From a virus (Duplodnaviria; Heunggongvirae; Uroviricota; Caudoviricetes): a DNA stretch of 6,394 nt. Under the pieces are notes generated by a model that was not told the origin of the DNA, did not search any database, and was given only the letters and a program-made list of their open reading frames with translations. The stretch lies in the IMG/VR virus record IMGVR_UViG_2778261567_000021. One strand, written 5' to 3'. The position numbers were made by a program, and so were the translations under genes. Positions 864 through 6,394 of the stretch are shown here, in pieces (the first letter of the stretch is position 1; every line of letters begins with the position of its first letter).

Positions 864-2618
864 TTATAAAAACGCGTCGCACTCGTCTGTTGTTATTGCG
901 TTAGTCTGCGTTACTCCCTTAACTTTCCGCGTAATATATTCATGTCCGTAAACTTTCGCGGCTGGCTTCATAGCCTTGCCAAAGTCATTTACGTTTAGCG
1001 GTTTGCTCCTGCCTGCGTACGCCATAAACGCCAGATAGACGCGGTAAAGGCTGTTTCTGGTCGTGTACTTCACTGAATCGCCACCGCCGCCCATCATCAG
1101 GCCGCGTGCTTCCTCCAGAAAATTCAGGAACTGGCAAAACTCAATAACCGGATCCGTCTGTTGCTTTATTGCCAGAGCTTCATCACCGTCACGCTGTTCC
1201 AGTAGTAAAGCCCGTGCTTTCTCAGAGTCGGTAAAGTTCGCCAGCAATCGGCGGATAATGACAGGGATTTCAGCCGCAATCTTTTCCGGTAGCTCCCTGT
1301 CTTTTTCGGCCTCACTGACGATATTGTCGAAACGGAAAATCACGCGACGACGTGCCACACCTCCGGCCCGTTCGGTGAATATCATCGGGTTGTTGTTGGT
1401 CGCCAGCACCACCGCCCTGATTACCGCCGTAAAACGCTTTTCATATTTCGGGTTAATTTCCACGGGGTCACCGCCCGTGATTTTCTTGATGCCCGTTCCT
1501 TCGCCTGTATATTTCGGCTGGTCAGCCAGGACGATAAGGCGACTCCCGACAACCTGCGCACGTCCACCAGCATCATCAAGCGATGTCATTTCAGCGCTTA
1601 CCGTGTTCTGTTTCCCTGCCAGAAGGCTGGCTATGTGTGTGAATGTACTTTTACCGCTCCCGCCGTCTCCGGTGGCCTCAATAAACATCTGCCAGTCGTA
1701 CCGGTTCGCCATAATCATGTACAGCGCGGCACATATCCGCATCATCTTGCGCGGGTCTTTTCCGGCTGCGTGCTCAAGCCATTTATGAAAGTTTGGCGCG
1801 TTATCGCGGATGTTCTCCCCTGGTGCTGGTGGCGTGTACTCAATACCGTTGTGCGTGGTGATCCAGTTCTCCGGCGTGTGCGGGGAAAATTCCCCCGTTT
1901 TCAGGTCAAGCGCACCATTGGCAAACGGCAGCAAATCGCCGGACGGCTCGCCCATTGGTTCGGCAATAACTTTTAACGCTTCCACGGCGTTATTGATTAC
2001 GCGCTTGCTGAAAGTGGCCCTGTGCTCTGAATAGATCGCCACCATTTCGCGGCTAAGTTCCATTGTGCTGACCGGACACCATACCCCGCCGCGCCATACG
2101 TGAACGATTTCACTTTCAGGATGCACGCAAACGCCATCAAATCGTCCGGCAAGAAGTTGAGCGCGCTCACTGTCCGCCATCTGCGAAAGTTGCGCCTTTT
2201 GCTTTACAGGAAGCTCAATAACCAGCCCATCAGAAAGATTCTGGCGCTCACTGGCCAGATATTCGCGCCAGTTCTCCACCTTCTGACCGTGCATACCATC
2301 AGGGTAAAAATTTGCATCCTGTACGCCTGCCGCCGCCAGCTTCTGACCAATCGCCTTTATCATTACTGGCGCAAGATATCCGGCCCTGAATATGCGCACG
2401 GATTTTCTGCCTTCCGGCACAATTTGCAGCTTATCCAGTTCTGATAACTGCTGCTCCCCAAGCCACACAGGAGGCTCATTATCTCCGGCCATACGCGCGT
2501 CATGTTCCTGCCATTGTTTCGCGTGTGACCAGGCATCACTACCCGCAAAAATAATGACTTCTGTTTCTTTGTGTTTTATGCCGCGTGGCTGCTGTTTTAC
2601 GTTCGGTGCCAGTTTCAT
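864..2618 (-). CDS. Phage/plasmid primase-helicase, P4-alpha family (D5_N-like region + SF3-type P-loop NTPase), 584 aa
   Basis: 584-aa ORF with Walker A GDGGSGKST and a Walker B-like hhhhD motif (RLIVLADQ) in the central/C-terminal part, as in the P4-alpha / poxvirus D5 primase C-terminal NTPase family. The N-terminal about 250 aa is a candidate primase domain. It is followed immediately by an iteron cluster, consistent with a pri-rep initiator and its ori. Confidence 0.88.
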   Translation of the reverse strand: MKLAPNVKQQPRGIKHKETEVIIFAGSDAWSHAKQWQEHDARMAGDNEPPVWLGEQQLSELDKLQIVPEGRKSVRIFRAGYLAPVMIKAIGQKLAAAGVQDANFYPDGMHGQKVENWREYLASERQNLSDGLVIELPVKQKAQLSQMADSERAQLLAGRFDGVCVHPESEIVHVWRGGVWCPVSTMELSREMVAIYSEHRATFSKRVINNAVEALKVIAEPMGEPSGDLLPFANGALDLKTGEFSPHTPENWITTHNGIEYTPPAPGENIRDNAPNFHKWLEHAAGKDPRKMMRICAALYMIMANRYDWQMFIEATGDGGSGKSTFTHIASLLAGKQNTVSAEMTSLDDAGGRAQVVGSRLIVLADQPKYTGEGTGIKKITGGDPVEINPKYEKRFTAVIRAVVLATNNNPMIFTERAGGVARRRVIFRFDNIVSEAEKDRELPEKIAAEIPVIIRRLLANFTDSEKARALLLEQRDGDEALAIKQQTDPVIEFCQFLNFLEEARGLMMGGGGDSVKYTTRNSLYRVYLAFMAYAGRSKPLNVNDFGKAMKPAAKVYGHEYITRKVKGVTQTNAITTDECDAFL

Positions 2619-2914
2619 TTTTTGCCCCTGAATCCGTTAATCATGTTTTTCATCTTCTGAATATTGGCGCGTGCTTTCTCCCTGCTGGTGGGCACGTTAC
2701 GCGGTACTGCCTGCACAAGAGAAAAATCACGCCGGAACTGATAAACAGGCATCACGCAATCATATTCGTAACCTTCACGGCGGTAAGTTACGCACCGTCC
2801 CGCCACGCCCTTAATCATTACCGTGCCGCCGTACTGGTCGCGGTAAATATCACCGCGCGTAAATTTAGGGTGAGTGTTGCCACTGGCAGTTAAGCCAGAA
2901 TATTTAAATTTCAT
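2615..2914 (-). CDS. Hypothetical basic protein (99 aa), translationally coupled to the primase
   Basis: ATG at 2914 with GGAG about 11 nt upstream. Its stop TGA (2615-2617) overlaps the primase ATG (2616-2618) as ATGA. Product MKFKYSGLTASGNTHPKFTRGDIYRDQYGGTVMIKGVAGRCVTYRREGYEYDCVMPVYQFRRDF… No family recognised. Confidence 0.55.
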   Translation of the reverse strand: MKFKYSGLTASGNTHPKFTRGDIYRDQYGGTVMIKGVAGRCVTYRREGYEYDCVMPVYQFRRDFSLVQAVPRNVPTSREKARANIQKMKNMINGFRGKK

Positions 2915-2919
2915 TATTT

Positions 2920-3153
2920 TTATTCTCCGGTGTGCTGTTCGTTATATCTGTCGTGCAATTGGTCTATTTCTTGTAGTTCCATTATTACAGGCTCAAGAAG
3001 CGTTATTAATGCCGTGACAATTCTTGATTTTTGTTTGTCGCGTTCATTGTCGCCAAGTGTTTCAAGCCATATGCGCAATATTTCCATCATATTTTCACTG
3101 TGAGAAAGTGCAAGAAATACGCGATCTGTTGTTTCGTGGTAAATATCACGCAT
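2920..3153 (-). CDS. Hypothetical protein (77 aa)
   Basis: ATG at 3153 lies 1 nt after the previous stop, with a GGGG-rich sequence upstream. Acidic product MRDIYHETTDRVFLALSHSENMMEILRIWLETLGDNERDKQKSRIVTALITLLEPVIMELQEIDQLHDRYNEQHTGE. Co-oriented and tightly spaced within the operon. Confidence 0.5.
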   Translation of the reverse strand: MRDIYHETTDRVFLALSHSENMMEILRIWLETLGDNERDKQKSRIVTALITLLEPVIMELQEIDQLHDRYNEQHTGE

Positions 3154-3154
3154 A

Positions 3155-3376
3155 TTAATCCCCGTCCGTCGCTTTTCTTAAAATAACCTCTGTCACGAAA
3201 TCAGCATAGTTAGCGGCAATATCAAGAATATTTAGCCCTGTATCTCTGTGCTCATCAGTGCAAAGAAAGAAAAAAGCCACCCGCATAATTTCAGATATTG
3301 ACGAAAGCGCATCAGCCGCATCATCAGGAACGCCGGAAAATTCTTGTTTCAGGGAATTAAAACGATCATCACGCAT
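3155..3376 (-). CDS. Hypothetical protein (73 aa); possibly the C-terminal part of a protein fused with 3349..3609
   Basis: ATG at 3376 lies 2 nt after the G9 run, which could double as a G-rich SD. Product MRDDRFNSLKQEFSGVPDDAADALSSISEIMRVAFFFLCTDEHRDTGLNILDIAANYADFVTEVILRKATDGD. Its stop TAA (3155-3157) is 1 nt from the next start. Confidence 0.5.
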   Translation of the reverse strand: MRDDRFNSLKQEFSGVPDDAADALSSISEIMRVAFFFLCTDEHRDTGLNILDIAANYADFVTEVILRKATDGD

Positions 3377-3609
3377 AACCCCCCCCCATTTTCACAATCA
3401 GCAATCAGGATAGCTTTGGCCTCATTCAGCGCCATATCAGCACTAAGTTGCATAACCGCCAGCGAATGAGGAACGAAAGCCCCTGCATATTCTGTTTCAC
3501 TGGTGGCGTGCTTATGCGCCCTGTCAGCAATAACAGAAATATCAATAAGCGCGTGCATCAGCGTAGTGAGCGCGGCGGCTGCTGCGTCCGGTGTGGTTTT
3601 ATTGCACAT
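3349..3609 (-). CDS. Hypothetical protein (86 aa); possibly the N-terminal part of a longer protein split at a homopolymer
   Basis: ATG at 3609 with a strong SD (AGGAGG 6 nt upstream, lying inside the preceding ORF). The C-terminus (…ENGGGLCVMIVLIP) is encoded across the G9 run and overlaps the next ORF by 28 nt in another frame. Confidence 0.5.
   Translation of the reverse strand: MCNKTTPDAAAAALTTLMHALIDISVIADRAHKHATSETEYAGAFVPHSLAVMQLSADMALNEAKAILIADCENGGGLCVMIVLIP
3379..3387. repeat. Homopolymeric tract C9 (G9 on the coding strand) at the junction of two ORFs
   Basis: Nine consecutive C at 3379-3387. The minus-strand ORFs 3349..3609 and 3155..3376 differ by one frame across this tract. 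Confidence 0.9.
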
Positions 3610-3805
3610 GGCACACCTCCTGACGAATACGGGCGGCGAATACCATCACGCAGCCAGCCGGGGATTGCAGGCGTGCTTCCTGTTCGCTGGCGGCCTCAAT
3701 GGTAATCACGCGCGGTTGTGCCGTGCTCAGGGCGATAAAACGCCAGATGTATTTATTCAGGTTGTGCGAGTCCCGCCCTTGCGGGTGTGTGGTATGATTT
3801 AACAT
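3599..3805 (-). CDS. Hypothetical protein (68 aa), first gene of the minus-strand operon
   Basis: The ORF track shows a 305-aa ORF 3599..4516, but only the 3' part is credible. The internal ATG at 3805 is preceded by GAGGT 5 nt upstream (minus strand CGAGGTAGCT-ATG). Product MLNHTTHPQGRDSHNLNKYIWRFIALSTAQPRVITIEAASEQEARLQSPAGCVMVFAARIRQEVCHVQ. Its stop overlaps the start of the next ORF by 11 nt. Confidence 0.5.
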   Translation of the reverse strand: MLNHTTHPQGRDSHNLNKYIWRFIALSTAQPRVITIEAASEQEARLQSPAGCVMVFAARIRQEVCHVQ

Positions 3806-3901
3806 AGCTACCTCGATACGCTTTCTATCGTTGGTGGTTAGAAGCCCGGTTAGTGTTAGCGCACTGCCGGGTTTCGTCGTTTCTGCACCTTGCATCAACA
3901 A

Positions 3902-3955
3902 GGTGTTGAACACCAATTTAAGCCCTGGTGTTAAACACGTCAAGTGTTGAACACT
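3902..3955. promoter_or_regulatory. Three palindromic operator-like sites GTGTT-N-AACAC in a divergent promoter region
   Basis: GGTGTTGAACACC (3902-3914, 13-bp palindrome), GTGTTAAACAC (3928-3938) and AGTGTTGAACACT (3943-3955, 13-bp palindrome). An extra AGTGTT half-site lies near 3851-3856. They sit between divergently oriented genes (minus-strand ORF starting at 3805, plus-strand RHH ORF starting at 4005). Confidence 0.55.
3916..3943 (-). promoter_or_regulatory. Candidate sigma70 promoter for the minus-strand replication operon
   Basis: On the minus strand: TTGACG (3943..3938), 16-nt spacer containing operator 2, TTAAAT (3921..3916). It lies back-to-back with the plus-strand promoter. Assigned by eye only. 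Confidence 0.3.
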
Positions 3956-3975
3956 TATTTTTTTTCCTGCATACT
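3947..3975 (+). promoter_or_regulatory. Candidate sigma70 promoter for the RHH cassette
   Basis: TTGAAC (3947-3952), 17-nt spacer, CATACT (3970-3975). The -35 element lies inside operator 3. Assigned by eye only. Confidence 0.3.
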
Positions 3976-4004
3976 GCATTTGTTTTTTGTAAGGGGTACA
4001 CAAC

Positions 4005-4184
4005 ATGGCGACAAAAGCAGTAAACGCAAAATCACAAACAGTTGCGGCAAGGGTTCCGCATGAAGTTATGAACAATGTTGAGGCGGTAAAAATGCCTGGT
4101 GAAAGTACAGGGCAGTTTGTAACAGCAGCATTAAAGCGAGAAGTTGAATACCGCCAGCGTCGCAAGGCCAAAGAGCAGGAATAA
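4005..4184 (+). CDS. Small ribbon-helix-helix (CopG/Arc/MetJ-like) DNA-binding protein, 59 aa
   Basis: Absent from the ORF track, presumably for being under the length cut-off. ATG at 4005 is preceded by AAGGGG at 3991-3996 (8-nt spacing); stop TAA at 4182-4184. Product MATKAVNAKSQTVAARVPHEVMNNVEAVKMPGESTGQFVTAALKREVEYRQRRKAKEQE shows the RHH signature: a beta-strand (AARVPHEV), helix, G-x-S/T turn (GESTGQF), and second helix (VTAALKREV). It lies immediately downstream of the palindromic operators. Confidence 0.55.
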   Translation: MATKAVNAKSQTVAARVPHEVMNNVEAVKMPGESTGQFVTAALKREVEYRQRRKAKEQE

Positions 4185-4241
4185 CCATCACCAGCGCCGT
4201 GGTGTAAGGTATTACGGCGCATTGCTATGCAGGACAACACA

Positions 4242-4415
4242 ATGACCGATAAAGAATTGACCAAAACATTATCACCGGCACGGAAAAGACGGCGCAGAAA
4301 GATAGAGCATGAATCAGAAAGATTCGCGCCATGTGCTTTTGCCCTTGAGCAATTCCTTAAAGAGTACAGGGAAACGCGCCCATTGCAGGTATGGCAACGA
4401 ACTGAACCAGACTGA
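4242..4415 (+). CDS. Hypothetical small basic protein (57 aa; KRRRRK motif)
   Basis: ORF track gives 4227..4415. The second in-frame ATG at 4242 is preferred because AGGA at 4230-4233 lies 8 nt upstream. Product MTDKELTKTLSPARKRRRRKIEHESERFAPCAFALEQFLKEYRETRPLQVWQRTEPD. It follows the RHH ORF on the same strand and is closed by the terminator at 4480-4508. No family recognised. Confidence 0.4.
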   Translation: MTDKELTKTLSPARKRRRRKIEHESERFAPCAFALEQFLKEYRETRPLQVWQRTEPD

Positions 4416-4479
4416 TTGCATTGCCCACCAGCCTGATAGCGGCTATCATCCCCGTGCTTATGTTTAGTGTTTTCCCATT

Positions 4480-4508
4480 GGCGACCGCCCCCGGTCGCCT
4501 TTGTTTTA
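4480..4508 (+). terminator. Rho-independent terminator of the plus-strand small-ORF cassette
   Basis: Perfect 8-bp GC-rich stem GGCGACCG (4480-4487) / CGGTCGCC (4492-4499) with a 4-nt loop CCCC, followed by TTTGTTTTA on the plus strand. On the minus strand the hairpin is followed by AAUGGGAAA, so it is mainly unidirectional. Confidence 0.65.
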
Positions 4509-4526
4509 TGTGTCATATGCTCCCCT

Positions 4527-4736
4527 TTACACTGCCTTACCTGAATTAATGCGATCCCGGCTTTTAACCCATTCCATAACCTCGGACAGCAGCCACCCTA
4601 CAGAACGACCGCCCAGATTAAGACGTGACGGAAAGCTCCCTTTTTTCTCCAGTTCGTAGCGTGTAGTGCGACACACTCCAGTTAACTTACGACATTCATC
4701 CTCACGGATTACGCGATCTTCATTTATTTCACGCAT
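4527..4736 (-). CDS. alpA: AlpA-family (Vis/Xis-like) transcriptional regulator / excisionase-type HTH protein, 69 aa
   Basis: The 69-aa product MREINEDRVIREDECRKLTGVCRTTRYELEKKGSFPSRLNLGGRSVGWLLSEVMEWVKSRDRINSGKAV matches the AlpA pattern (…TG.sR.T.Y…P….lG.rsVGW…E…W, about 70 aa). The ORF track extends it to 4823 with a GTG start (98 aa), but the extension is AT-rich and AlpA proteins are about 70 aa, so the ATG at 4736 is preferred. It sits directly downstream of int in the same orientation. Confidence 0.75.
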   Translation of the reverse strand: MREINEDRVIREDECRKLTGVCRTTRYELEKKGSFPSRLNLGGRSVGWLLSEVMEWVKSRDRINSGKAV

Positions 4737-5155
4737 ACAAAAACCTACATAAAAATTACGTATATAAACTTTTCTCTTAGCTGTAGATATATGAGATCGG
4801 ATATTACTTAGATTCTTTTTCACCTCTTAAATTAAAAACACAACCATGCTAAAGGCTTTGTTCGCTAAGGTTCGTAGAAGCTCGTTAGTGTTTAAAATCG
4901 TGTCACGAGTTTTTAAGCGACGCAACAAAAAATGTCGTCATTTGGCATGACACCTTAATTACCTCATTAAAAACAAATAGATAAACTATCAGGTGTTGGA
5001 ACAATCAAGAAACAGAGAATAAGAACTCAGAAGAAGACATTTCAATTTTTTTCGATAGTTGACACATATAAAGAGAAGATATTTGCAGATATTCCCCGAT
5101 ATTCTAAGATCTATTCACGGCTGTAATCTCTTAAAGAAAAAACAGCCGTAATTTG

Positions 5156-6394
5156 TCAAGAATTTTGGGGGTAAATTCGCGGGGTCATAACAACGATTTT
5201 TTCATCATTGTTCTGGAGAAGCTCGAGACGGTCTACCCATAGATTAAGAGCATCACGTTTTGCATCAAGGTAGCGGGAGTGGTTATAGACTCGTTGCATC
5301 CCTGGCATCTGGTGGGCTGTAAGCTGCTCGACAATATGCGGATCCACGCCTAAATCGTTCAGCATGGTTGTAAATGTGTGCCGGATATCGTGTAACGTCC
5401 AGGGGGCTTGATTAATTCGTCTGTGCGCTGTTCTTCCGTACTCTGCTACCGAAGATTGTCCTTTCAGTTCACCAAGCAATAAGCCTGAGTGTCTGTTCTG
5501 CTCCACCAGTTGCGTGACGAACGGCAAAATGCTTTCCGGTATTGGCCTGAATATGGCGACCTTCGTTTTGCTGTGCTCCTTCGGTACTGTCCAGAGCATT
5601 TCTTTAAAATCCCACTCCTGCACCTCAGAGCGCCTTAGCTCAGTGGTACGGCATCCAAAAACAATCAGGAGGCGAATTAGGGCGCTGTAGTATGGCGGGA
5701 ATATTTTGTCATCCAGGGCGCGGAGTAATTCCCCAAGCTCCTTATTTGTTAGTACGCGCTCGCTCACTTCTGCTTTTTTTCCCACATCACCGACAACCAT
5801 ATCATCAAGAACGTTGCTGATTGCGTATCGTCGTTTTCGGCAGTACTTAAGCGCCTGTTTGCATACCTGTAGCAAAAATCCGGCAGATACAGGGCTTCGC
5901 TTTGCCATCTGGTCAAAACATGCCAACCAGTGCCGTAGCTCGCATTTTTCCAACGGCAAAGCGCCAATCTGGCTGATTATGTGTTTATTGATCCGGCTTT
6001 TCAGTGATTCGTAGTCAGTGCGCTTTTCCTTTGCATACGATTCAAGCCAGTAAGTGAGCGCTTCCTTAACTGTCACGGGGGCTAACGCATCCTGTACAGC
6101 ACGATTAAGCTCATAGCGCGGATTTTTCCCCTCAGCCAGCCAGGCGCGACACTGTGCTGCTTTTTCCCTGGCTGCTTTCAGGCTCAGATCGGGATAATTG
6201 CCCAGTCTCAGACGTTCCGGTGATACCTGCCTACCAGTTCCGGCCCTGTAAGTGAAATACCAGGTTAACAGGCCGCTGGTGGAATGTCTTACGCTAAGAT
6301 TGCCACCGTCATTAAAAAAGGCGTTTTTTGTGGTTGGTGATCCGCTTAATTTTCGTAAAAGAGTGTCGCTAAGTCTATGAATTGCGCTGCTCAT
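5156..6394 (-). CDS. int: Tyrosine site-specific integrase, P4 family (412 aa)
   Basis: ORF of 412 aa. The C-terminal catalytic region carries the HxxR box (HDIRHTF) and the tyrosine nucleophile motif (RVYNHSRY). The N-terminal region (GNLSVRHSTSGLLTWYFTYR...) resembles the arm-binding domain of P4/CP4-57-type integrases, recalled from memory. The ATG sits exactly at the window edge, so an upstream extension cannot be excluded. Confidence 0.93.
   Translation of the reverse strand: MSSAIHRLSDTLLRKLSGSPTTKNAFFNDGGNLSVRHSTSGLLTWYFTYRAGTGRQVSPERLRLGNYPDLSLKAAREKAAQCRAWLAEGKNPRYELNRAVQDALAPVTVKEALTYWLESYAKEKRTDYESLKSRINKHIISQIGALPLEKCELRHWLACFDQMAKRSPVSAGFLLQVCKQALKYCRKRRYAISNVLDDMVVGDVGKKAEVSERVLTNKELGELLRALDDKIFPPYYSALIRLLIVFGCRTTELRRSEVQEWDFKEMLWTVPKEHSKTKVAIFRPIPESILPFVTQLVEQNRHSGLLLGELKGQSSVAEYGRTAHRRINQAPWTLHDIRHTFTTMLNDLGVDPHIVEQLTAHQMPGMQRVYNHSRYLDAKRDALNLWVDRLELLQNNDEKIVVMTPRIYPQNS

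Follow-up and report, generated by a model that had tools for sequence, protein, structure and literature searches.

The virus record IMGVR_UViG_2778261567_000021 (Caudoviricetes) includes a stretch of 6,394 nucleotides, which as a whole is referred to here as the window. On its minus strand, between positions 2615 and 3805, five small open reading frames (ORFs) stand directly in front of a gene for a Pri-Rep primase, and it is this series of genes, together with the region that may control it, that we analysed. The 2615-3805 stretch is very probably the promoter-proximal segment within the conserved early (replication) operon carried by a phage-inducible chromosomal island (PICI) of Escherichia coli, belonging to the lineage of EcCICFT073 and OI-51 (EcCIEDL933). 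The series consists of the following genes:

3599-3805, minus strand: ORF1, 68 aa, the first gene of the operon
3349-3609, minus strand: ORF2, 86 aa
3155-3376, minus strand: ORF3, 73 aa
2920-3153, minus strand: ORF4, 77 aa
2615-2914, minus strand: ORF5, 99 aa
864-2618, minus strand: Pri-Rep primase, 584 aa, the last gene of the coupled series

A preliminary description of this DNA had reported five ORFs of 68-99 aa together with their junctions, and comparison with the ORF list and the sequence showed that these data are exact. ORF1 and ORF2 overlap by 11 nt (ATGTGCAATAA, 3599-3609), ORF3 and ORF4 are separated by 1 nt (3154), ORF4 and ORF5 by 5 nt (2915-2919), and the stop codon of ORF5 overlaps the start codon of the primase gene as ATGA at 2615-2618. 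Missing from that description was the overlap of 28 nt between ORF2 and ORF3 (3349-3376), which lies directly downstream of a run of nine G residues at 3379-3387. A Shine-Dalgarno-like purine run precedes the starts of ORF1, ORF2, ORF4 and ORF5 (for ORF1 it is GAGGT, 5-9 nt ahead of the ATG), while just the G tract is found before ORF3. Since such junctions are typical of translational coupling, the proposal of a co-oriented, tightly packed operon which is coupled to the primase and ends in this replicase gene is supported.

We assessed the coding signal by pairwise dN/dS (the ratio of non-synonymous to synonymous substitution rates) between the ORFs of the window and their diverged copies in related loci, designated below by L numbers. 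The values were about 0.2-0.4 across the ORFs where dS was at least 0.09. For the individual frames, dN/dS was 0.29 for ORF1 (at a small dS of 0.045), 0.20 for ORF2 in comparison to L001, 0.14-0.38 for ORF3 among copies in which ORF2 and ORF3 are split, 0.23-0.37 for ORF4 in the majority of its comparisons at a dS of 0.09 or more (against L006 it was 0.56), and 0.18-0.31 for ORF5. Every one of the five ORFs also has a PHROG family match (E 1e-30 to 1e-43), and for all five proteins exact sequences exist in E. coli assemblies: the 86-aa form of ORF2, ORF4 and ORF5 were each found in at least 1000 contigs and ORF3 in 918, while 1362 blocks of the assembly collection have an entry for the exact 584-aa Pri-Rep protein. 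The operon stretch of 1191 bp was matched in 1850 of 5426 complete E. coli genomes. We thus conclude that the five ORFs are genuine genes under purifying selection. All of them are short, and a long frame of 305 aa (3599-4516), which is discussed below as a shadow ORF, overlaps the same region, so one could ask whether they are just chance open frames. We give hardly any credence to this, as it is opposed by the purifying selection, by family matches with E values of 1e-19 to 1e-43, by annotation of these ORFs in many matching RefSeq E. coli genomes and by the phenotypes measured for a homologue of ORF5. The preliminary description had allowed that conservation and coding signal might be lacking in related islands; since the operon is conserved and coding there, with dN/dS of about 0.2-0.4, this concern falls away.

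The type of the element can be recognised from the gene order on the minus strand, which is int, alpA, the operon with its Pri-Rep gene, a 288-bp iteron-rich spacer, an ORF of 92 aa and the start of ssb. The features which flank the operon in this order are:

5156-6394, minus strand: tyrosine integrase gene int (PF00589, Arm-DNA-bind_3)
4527-4823, minus strand: gene for an AlpA-family regulator, probable start at 4736 (PF05930, E 4e-16; aligned with annotated AlpA proteins of 62-68 aa)
576-863, both orientations: iteron region after the primase gene, multiple GGTAGAC / TATCTACC repeats at 619-853
1-300: start of ssb, inside which the window ends

An integrase gene at one end is thus followed by an AlpA-family regulator gene in the same orientation, and Pri-Rep is followed by an iteron-rich spacer that fits the origin described for E. 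coli PICIs, where iterons flank an AT-rich stretch (PMC6092414). The Pri-Rep protein contains the domains D5_N, DUF5906, Pox_D5 and TIGR01613, the last being the C-terminal domain of P4-family primases. As the window ends inside ssb, the size of the island was judged on the related locus L010 (strain 2018-166), which is identical to the window from ORF3 through the 92-aa ORF and also over ORF2 minus its first 5 nt. In L010 the island is about 10 kb long, is located between tRNA-Pro/yejM and yejO/narP, and contains only genes for a single-stranded DNA-binding protein (SSB), a ClpP-capsid fusion and small ORFs; its size and its lack of tail and lysis genes are those of a PICI, which occupies an att site of its own and measures roughly 10-15 kb. 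In L001, L002 and L011, which adjoin roxA/pepT/potA, genes for PerC, capsid, portal and terminase lie behind the same operon. L012 is the Sakai prophage Sp7, equal to CP-933C, O-island 51 and EcCIEDL933, where the operon is again followed by capsid, portal and terminase genes; EcCIEDL933 is a published capsid-forming PICI. Induction, replication and transfer which depend on a helper phage were reported for both EcCICFT073 (PMC6092414) and EcCIEDL933. In EcCICFT073, AlpA is induced by the helper phage and activates the genes downstream of alpA, and its over-expression leads to uncontrolled replication and lower viability (PMC6092414). When the whole window was compared with 50,697 phage records by megablast, no DNA match was found, and the 1191-bp stretch likewise matched 0 of these 50,697 records. 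A tblastn search of the phage records with ORF1 and with ORF5 gave one match each, in records of satellite size.

The preliminary description had stated that none of the five proteins resembles a family that can be named. This does not hold for ORF1 and ORF5. ORF1 belongs to NF033153, the Icd-like family (E 3.1e-19; 68.8 bits, the curated NCBIfam cutoff being 25), with residues 19-62 covering positions 1-48 of the 48 profile positions, and it is a member of phrog_6196 (E 1e-43). The same Icd-like annotation is carried by the counterparts of ORF1 in E. coli genomes. By family ORF1 is therefore an Icd-like protein, for which inhibition of cell division is putative, and we refer to its gene as icd. 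A sequence search of the PDB with ORF1, the fused form of ORF2 and ORF3 described below, ORF4 and ORF5 returned nothing at E values up to 1.

ORF5 matches PF13973 (DUF4222) with 82.2 bits and an E value of 1.9e-23, at a gathering cutoff of 27. It is 81% identical to Sakai ECs1581, with R20-G21-D22, Q27, K35 and R61 conserved, and it shows the characters by which RgdR was defined (PMC3378721), namely a length of 99 aa, the RGD motif at residues 20-22 and a nearly invariant core at residues 20-68. Moreover, ECs1581 lies immediately upstream of the replicase gene with an ATGA overlap, as ORF5 does. On these sequence characters ORF5 is an RgdR-family protein; its AlphaFold2 (AF2) model is a small five-stranded beta-barrel at residues 20-70 (pLDDT about 90), with a basic C-terminal helix. 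ECs1581 and its homologue C1493 from uropathogenic E. coli (UPEC; 83% homology) act as activators of LEE1 and type III secretion and as repressors of motility (Flockhart et al. 2012, PMC3378721). Both bind DNA non-specifically, and a natural variant from strain ED1a (C20) is inactive on type III secretion (PMC3378721). The allele of the window resembles ECs1581 of O157:H7 in its 99 aa, its DUF4222 domain, its RGD at 20-22 and its genomic position, and differs from it in having A10 and R45, like the UPEC and ED1a variants. RgdR can be regarded as a core gene of the PICI replication operon which is translationally tied to the replicase, and therefore its virulence effects should follow the induction of the island. 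In the RgdR sequence cluster, members of 451-465 aa were also found; since these replicases contain no RgdR sequence, we discarded them as a clustering artefact.

ORF4 belongs to phrog_2196 (E 1.7e-39), a narrow, Escherichia-centred family with nine representatives among 1.84 billion proteins. It is 92% identical to the copy in O157:H7 OI-51, and a distant allele, ECs_1580, occupies the same slot in Sakai (phrog_2196, E 5.9e-11). Thus, the profile searches placed ORF1 and ORF5 in named families and left ORF2, ORF3 and ORF4 with no assigned function.

ORF2 and ORF3 turned out to correspond to one protein of the relatives. ORF2 matches positions 1-77 of the 154 positions of phrog_2512 (and also phrog_5146), and ORF3 matches positions 78-145 of the same profile (and also phrog_24341). 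In fused proteins of 154 aa, residues 1-76 align with ORF2 and those from 78 onward with ORF3, while the C-terminal tail of ORF2 after the G tract consists of nine out-of-frame residues (LCVMIVLIP). The junction is formed by the following tract:

3379-3387, minus strand: G9 homopolymer at the ORF2/ORF3 junction, whose length sets the fused or split state

By alignment, ORF2 and ORF3 are thus the halves of one protein, split here by G9, and since they form a single gene in relatives, the "five" ORFs represent four ancestral genes. Among the window and 11 loci, the tract is G9 in eight, G8 in two and G7 in two. L002 and L011 have G7 and encode a single protein of 154 aa (...ADCENGGVMRDDRF...), while the window and L001 have G9. 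Database variants are fused with G7 (ENGGV, 154 aa) and G10 (ENGGGV, 155 aa), and split with G8 (...GGGYA*, 79 aa), G9 (...GGGLCVMIVLIP*, 86 aa) and G11 (...GGGGYA*, 80 aa). Fused forms are common and diverged (79-99% identical), and their length is constant at 154 or 155 aa. A scan of contigs with fused ORF2-3 by exact peptide patterns, which were too strict for the purpose, gave a single Shigella locus.

The AF2 model of the fused protein had a pLDDT of 56, and secondary structure alone was read from it, with no fold search; it suggests an all-helical protein of two domains, with two helical hairpins and, between them, a flexible linker in which the tract lies. We read the poly-G as a slippage-prone tract that may toggle between a fused and a two-piece protein. 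The split could also be explained as a frameshift pseudogene of no functional meaning, the G9 being a mutation due to decay or, for some of the assemblies, an error of sequencing. The fused form does look ancestral, because its length is constant across 79-99% identity, and the tail of ORF2 behind the tract is out-of-frame read-through. However, split forms are very common (the 86-aa form in at least 1000 contigs, ORF3 in 918), a conserved Met immediately behind the tract serves as the start of ORF3, whose dN/dS among split copies is 0.14-0.38, and five tract lengths co-occur in the E. coli population. Furthermore, a stand-alone N-terminal domain with no tract occurs naturally in one allele (P0019, 282 contigs), and the tract sits in the low-confidence linker between the two helical hairpins. 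We therefore consider decay an unlikely explanation of the split, while still giving it some weight.

Comparison with EcCICFT073 and EcCIEDL933 showed the same order of int, alpA, small-gene operon, rgdR, Pri-Rep, origin and ssb. The overlap of rgdR with the replicase gene as ATGA, an Icd-like first gene, an ORF4-family gene before rgdR and the first ~130 aa of the replicase are also common to these islands and the window. The differences concern the middle and the end of the operon and the control alleles. Where the window has ORF2 and ORF3, Sakai (EcCIEDL933) has ECs_1578 and ECs_1579 (phrog_3672 and phrog_1478), and an extra phrog_340 gene is found between icd and ORF4 in genome G5295; the place of the 584-aa Pri-Rep is taken by a primase of 710 aa in Sakai and by a RepA-type helicase in G5295; and the AlpA, YlcI and operator alleles (see below) differ from those of the window. 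Kinship of ORF2-3 with ECs_1578/ECs_1579 was considered and ruled out, as hhalign finds no relation. Thus, the slot from icd to ORF4 varies among the islands, and so does the replicase behind rgdR.

The two primase types (584 and 710 aa) have the first ~130 replicase residues in common. This N-terminal part (phrog_2850), compared over window positions 864-1260, L012 38601-39022 and L002 8650-9004, was observed in the RepA-type helicase too. It has the look of a conserved adaptor domain beside rgdR. As a mosaic, the window combines two parentages: ORF2 to the 92-aa ORF (inclusive) with 100% identity to L005, and icd plus the regulatory region with 98% identity to L001 and L002. The point of change, presumably due to recombination, falls at 3599-3643, the 3' end of icd, whose final 45 nt show conservation in every allele.

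The preliminary description had read this region after satellite P4, in which kil, cI and epsilon lie upstream of the primase gene, and had proposed that the five genes are new helper-interference, derepression or anti-defence factors. P4 does share with the window a tyrosine integrase, a Vis/AlpA-type protein and the P4-family primase domain (TIGR01613). Moreover, ORF2, ORF3 and ORF4 lack an assigned function, and the narrow, fast-changing families and the different cassettes in the icd-ORF4 slot are typical of conflict genes. On the other hand, the element, with int, AlpA, Pri-Rep, iteron origin and ssb, is a PICI, and only AlpA, Pri-Rep and Int share distant homology between PICIs and P4, gene content and organisation being fundamentally different (Fillol-Salom et al. 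2018, PMC6092414). No sign of the P4-specific genes (cI RNA, epsilon, sid/delta/psu) or of P4 homology in the genes ahead of the primase gene was obtained: the Icd-like and RgdR proteins were absent from P4-type records in tblastn searches, in which ORF2-ORF4 were not directly compared with P4 proteins, and an Rfam search of the window gave no C4/CI-type RNA. Named families exist for two of the five genes, and a homologue of one of them, RgdR, was studied experimentally. A PADLOC search with the small ORFs gave no match to any defence family. In EcCICFT073, redirection of packaging is ascribed to Rpp (PMC6739421), and the packaging module is located downstream of the primase gene. Finally, the designation "new" is at odds with the exact database matches of all five proteins in E. 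coli assemblies. We consider it improbable that the element is a P4-like satellite with such factors before its primase gene, and the P4 reading of the region is hereby corrected. The operon stretch is an already known, very common and annotated PICI module, and a largely ordinary one.

Another possibility is that the operon serves mainly as an abortive-infection or superinfection-exclusion module, in which a phage protein acts as the trigger and the Icd-like protein, the small proteins and the primase kill or arrest the cell. In strain ECOR61, cell death follows expression of the phage gene orf24; Tn5 insertions that suppress it hit three neighbouring genes, one Icd-like and two small; the effect needs the full set of six linked genes, among them the primase gene, and is lost when Icd is removed (Silas et al. 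2023 preprint). The genes hit in ECOR61 (192, 186 and 366 nt, with overlaps of 1 nt and 8 nt) correspond to Sakai ECs_1579, ECs_1578 and icd; because sizes and arrangement match Sakai Sp7, we infer that the ECOR61 locus is an operon of the same type with a different middle cassette. The reduced viability that accompanies uncontrolled EcCICFT073 replication upon AlpA over-expression points in the same direction. However, the small genes of ECOR61 come from families other than those of ORF2 and ORF3, reconstitution in a laboratory strain gave a muted effect (Silas et al.), the toxicity may be a by-product of island induction, and PADLOC models match none of the window's small ORFs. As the main role of the operon, abortive infection is in our opinion doubtful, and it is compatible with the reading as a PICI replication operon.

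Upstream of icd, several features were found by which the operon may be controlled:

3943-3915, minus strand: sigma-70 promoter predicted for the operon (TTGACG, 17 nt, TAAATT; a consensus match only)
3903-3913, 3928-3938 and 3944-3954: three 11-bp palindromes GTGTTNAACAC, over the -35 box, the spacer and +1, predicted operators
4005-4184, plus strand: gene of the YlcI/YnfO family (59 aa, NF041551, E 2.1e-16), divergent from the operon
4227-4415, plus strand: orf62 (62 aa, phrog_21027, E 3e-16), near-identical in Sakai Sp7
4480-4499, plus strand: strong intrinsic terminator (terminator scan), which ends the ylcI-orf62 unit
3790-3798, plus strand: extended -10 box TGGTATGAT within the first icd codons, followed by 7 nt and then A3806
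3806-3885, plus strand: predicted cis-antisense RNA of ~80 nt, opposite the 5' untranslated region and ribosome-binding site of icd

The predicted promoter lies ~100 nt upstream of icd. The palindromes exceed chance, as three were seen and 0.21 were expected, and 0 of 200 shuffled sequences reached three. Other sets of palindromes stand in the same place elsewhere: TGTGCGCACA three times in L001, GTGCAAGTCACCT as a pair in L010 and GGTGGTCACC twice in Sakai. These sets follow the YlcI/YnfO allele and not the AlpA allele. L001, L002 and L012 (Sakai) have identical AlpA, three YlcI alleles and three palindrome sets, and, conversely, between the window and L002 the AlpA proteins differ (61% identical), and YlcI and the palindromes are the same. 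Because the palindrome sequence co-varies with the allele of YlcI and not with that of AlpA, YlcI is a candidate for the island repressor.

The best PDB matches of a YlcI profile built from five alleles were all to Arc and all weak (E 0.057-0.55), the first being P22 Arc with residues 8-50 aligned to residues 5-48; Pfam Arc (0.14) and HicB (4.9e-4) were each matched by a single allele. YlcI/YnfO is thus a candidate Arc-like ribbon-helix-helix protein and candidate repressor of the operon. With orf62, which looks unannotated, ylcI forms a two-gene unit convergent with alpA. The frame of 305 aa mentioned above (3599-4516, minus strand), which would extend icd upstream, is probably a shadow ORF, since it runs antisense through ylcI and orf62 and crosses the promoter/operator region, and since PGAP annotates the 68-aa form.

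The second predicted control element is the antisense RNA, whose predicted fold comprises two hairpins followed by a U-rich tail (z -4.1). It would cover the Shine-Dalgarno sequence of icd, the anti-Shine-Dalgarno ACCUC being placed within the hairpin 1 loop or beside it. The motif GGTTAGA(A/C)GCC and both hairpins were found antisense to the icd start in all 11 of the 11 related loci that carry an island (for example at 12638-12719 in L010 and at 37427-37508, minus strand, in L012). In an alignment of the 11 distinct sequences with 22 pairs, 96.7% of the cells pair, in comparison to 36-53% when the partners are slid, and compensatory changes occur in 5 pairs. As for the strand, G-U is present in 44 of 240 cells on the plus strand and would be A-C on the mRNA strand, and U tracts follow hairpin 2 solely on the strand of the antisense RNA. 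A covariance model of the island RNAs detected one copy opposite the icd start per island locus, at 73-92 bits.

With the same model, second, diverged copies (50 bits) were observed at L003 8008-8089, L005 7987-8068 and L007 7648-7729 (all minus strand), ~740 bp closer to alpA and beside a second YlcI-like gene, which suggests a duplicated control module. In L012, a weak match (E 0.0095) was obtained at 17258-17334 (minus strand). It stands directly upstream of ECs_1557, the antirepressor gene in the lambdoid prophage Sp6, and runs antisense to this gene, a hint that antisense RNAs on ant/icd-type genes may form a wider class. In Rfam, no family was above threshold for the antisense RNA region. 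SymR (RF01809) matched below threshold at the same relative position in the window (32.8 bits) and in L010 (25.9 bits); membership was rejected, as the gathering threshold is 61 bits and the reciprocal model misses K-12 symR. The likeness to SymE/SymR is one of arrangement: in both cases an RNA of two hairpins and ~77 nt would lie opposite the 5' end of a toxic gene, and the -10 box and +1 of K-12 symR are in register with those predicted here, while Icd is unrelated to SymE.

These elements can be combined into a working model. The operon would be transcribed from its own predicted promoter (3943-3915). In the quiescent island, the divergent Arc-like YlcI/YnfO protein would shut this promoter by binding to the three palindromic operators, and a constitutive antisense RNA of ~80 nt would cover the ribosome-binding site of icd; through translational coupling and polarity, this RNA could silence the whole series down to the replicase gene. 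Upon induction, the coupled genes would be produced together with the replicase, Icd may halt division while the island replicates, RgdR may reprogram host transcription, and ORF2/3 and ORF4 could have accessory roles. That such PICIs are held quiescent by a switch like the immI loci of phages, made of an allele-specific Arc-like YlcI/YnfO repressor and a cis-antisense RNA which blocks icd, RgdR and the replicase, and supplemented by a hypermutable poly-G toggle, is a tentative proposal whose chances we put at somewhat below even.

Several points weigh against our explanation of the operon and its control. The promoter, the operators and the antisense RNA are all predictions from sequence, and the promoter scan gave no more sites in the window than in shuffled sequence. 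The likeness of YlcI to Arc is weak (E 0.057), the covariation is based on 11 related sequences from recombining alleles, and the AF2 model of fused ORF2-3 is poor (pLDDT 56). A convergent unit with its terminator stands between alpA and the operon, and activation by AlpA would have to be reconciled with a separate promoter under the control of a repressor. The phenotypes of RgdR come from the ECs1581 and C1493 alleles and not from the allele of the window, and the ED1a variant is inactive. Finally, the two small ECOR61 genes hit by suppressor insertions match ECs_1578/1579 in size and are unrelated to ORF2/ORF3.

By itself, the five-gene stretch adds little, being a common annotated module in which RgdR, a regulator of virulence and motility in EHEC, has been studied and the Icd-like gene has been named; only the control elements and the poly-G toggle may be new, as predictions. 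In the literature on YlcI/YnfO, on small RNAs of CP-933C and on antisense RNAs of PICIs, we found nothing that describes either control element for PICIs, in a collection that was incomplete, so that a prior description is possible. The candidate ribbon-helix-helix operators, the antisense RNA and the poly-G tract bear on two questions about Gram-negative PICIs, namely what keeps them silent and why inducing them is toxic. If the proposal is true, the immI-like switch would be the "missing repressor" which was left unclear for these islands by Fillol-Salom et al. 2018 (PMC6092414).

By analogy, the arrangement of the control region resembles the immI loci of phages P1 and P22. In P1 immI, the c4 RNA pairs with the ribosome-binding site of icd, and translation of icd governs the expression of ant; the c4 RNA is transcribed upstream, from the same strand, and works in trans. 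The RNA of the window is, in contrast, predicted to be cis-antisense with its own promoter, the Rfam C4 family (RF01695) has no match in the window at E values up to 1, and the downstream genes are those of RgdR and the replicase, where P1 has an antirepressor. Common to P1 and the window are an Icd-family first gene (NF033153) ahead of the controlled gene or genes and a small RNA, here a predicted one, at the icd ribosome-binding site. P22 immI employs two ribbon-helix-helix repressors, Arc and Mnt, and the sar antisense RNA. The similarity of YlcI to Arc is weak (E 0.057), and the controlled genes differ. Nevertheless, it is with P22 that the window would share a divergent small Arc-like ribbon-helix-helix protein, palindromic predicted operators on the promoter and an antisense RNA at the ribosome-binding site of the first gene.

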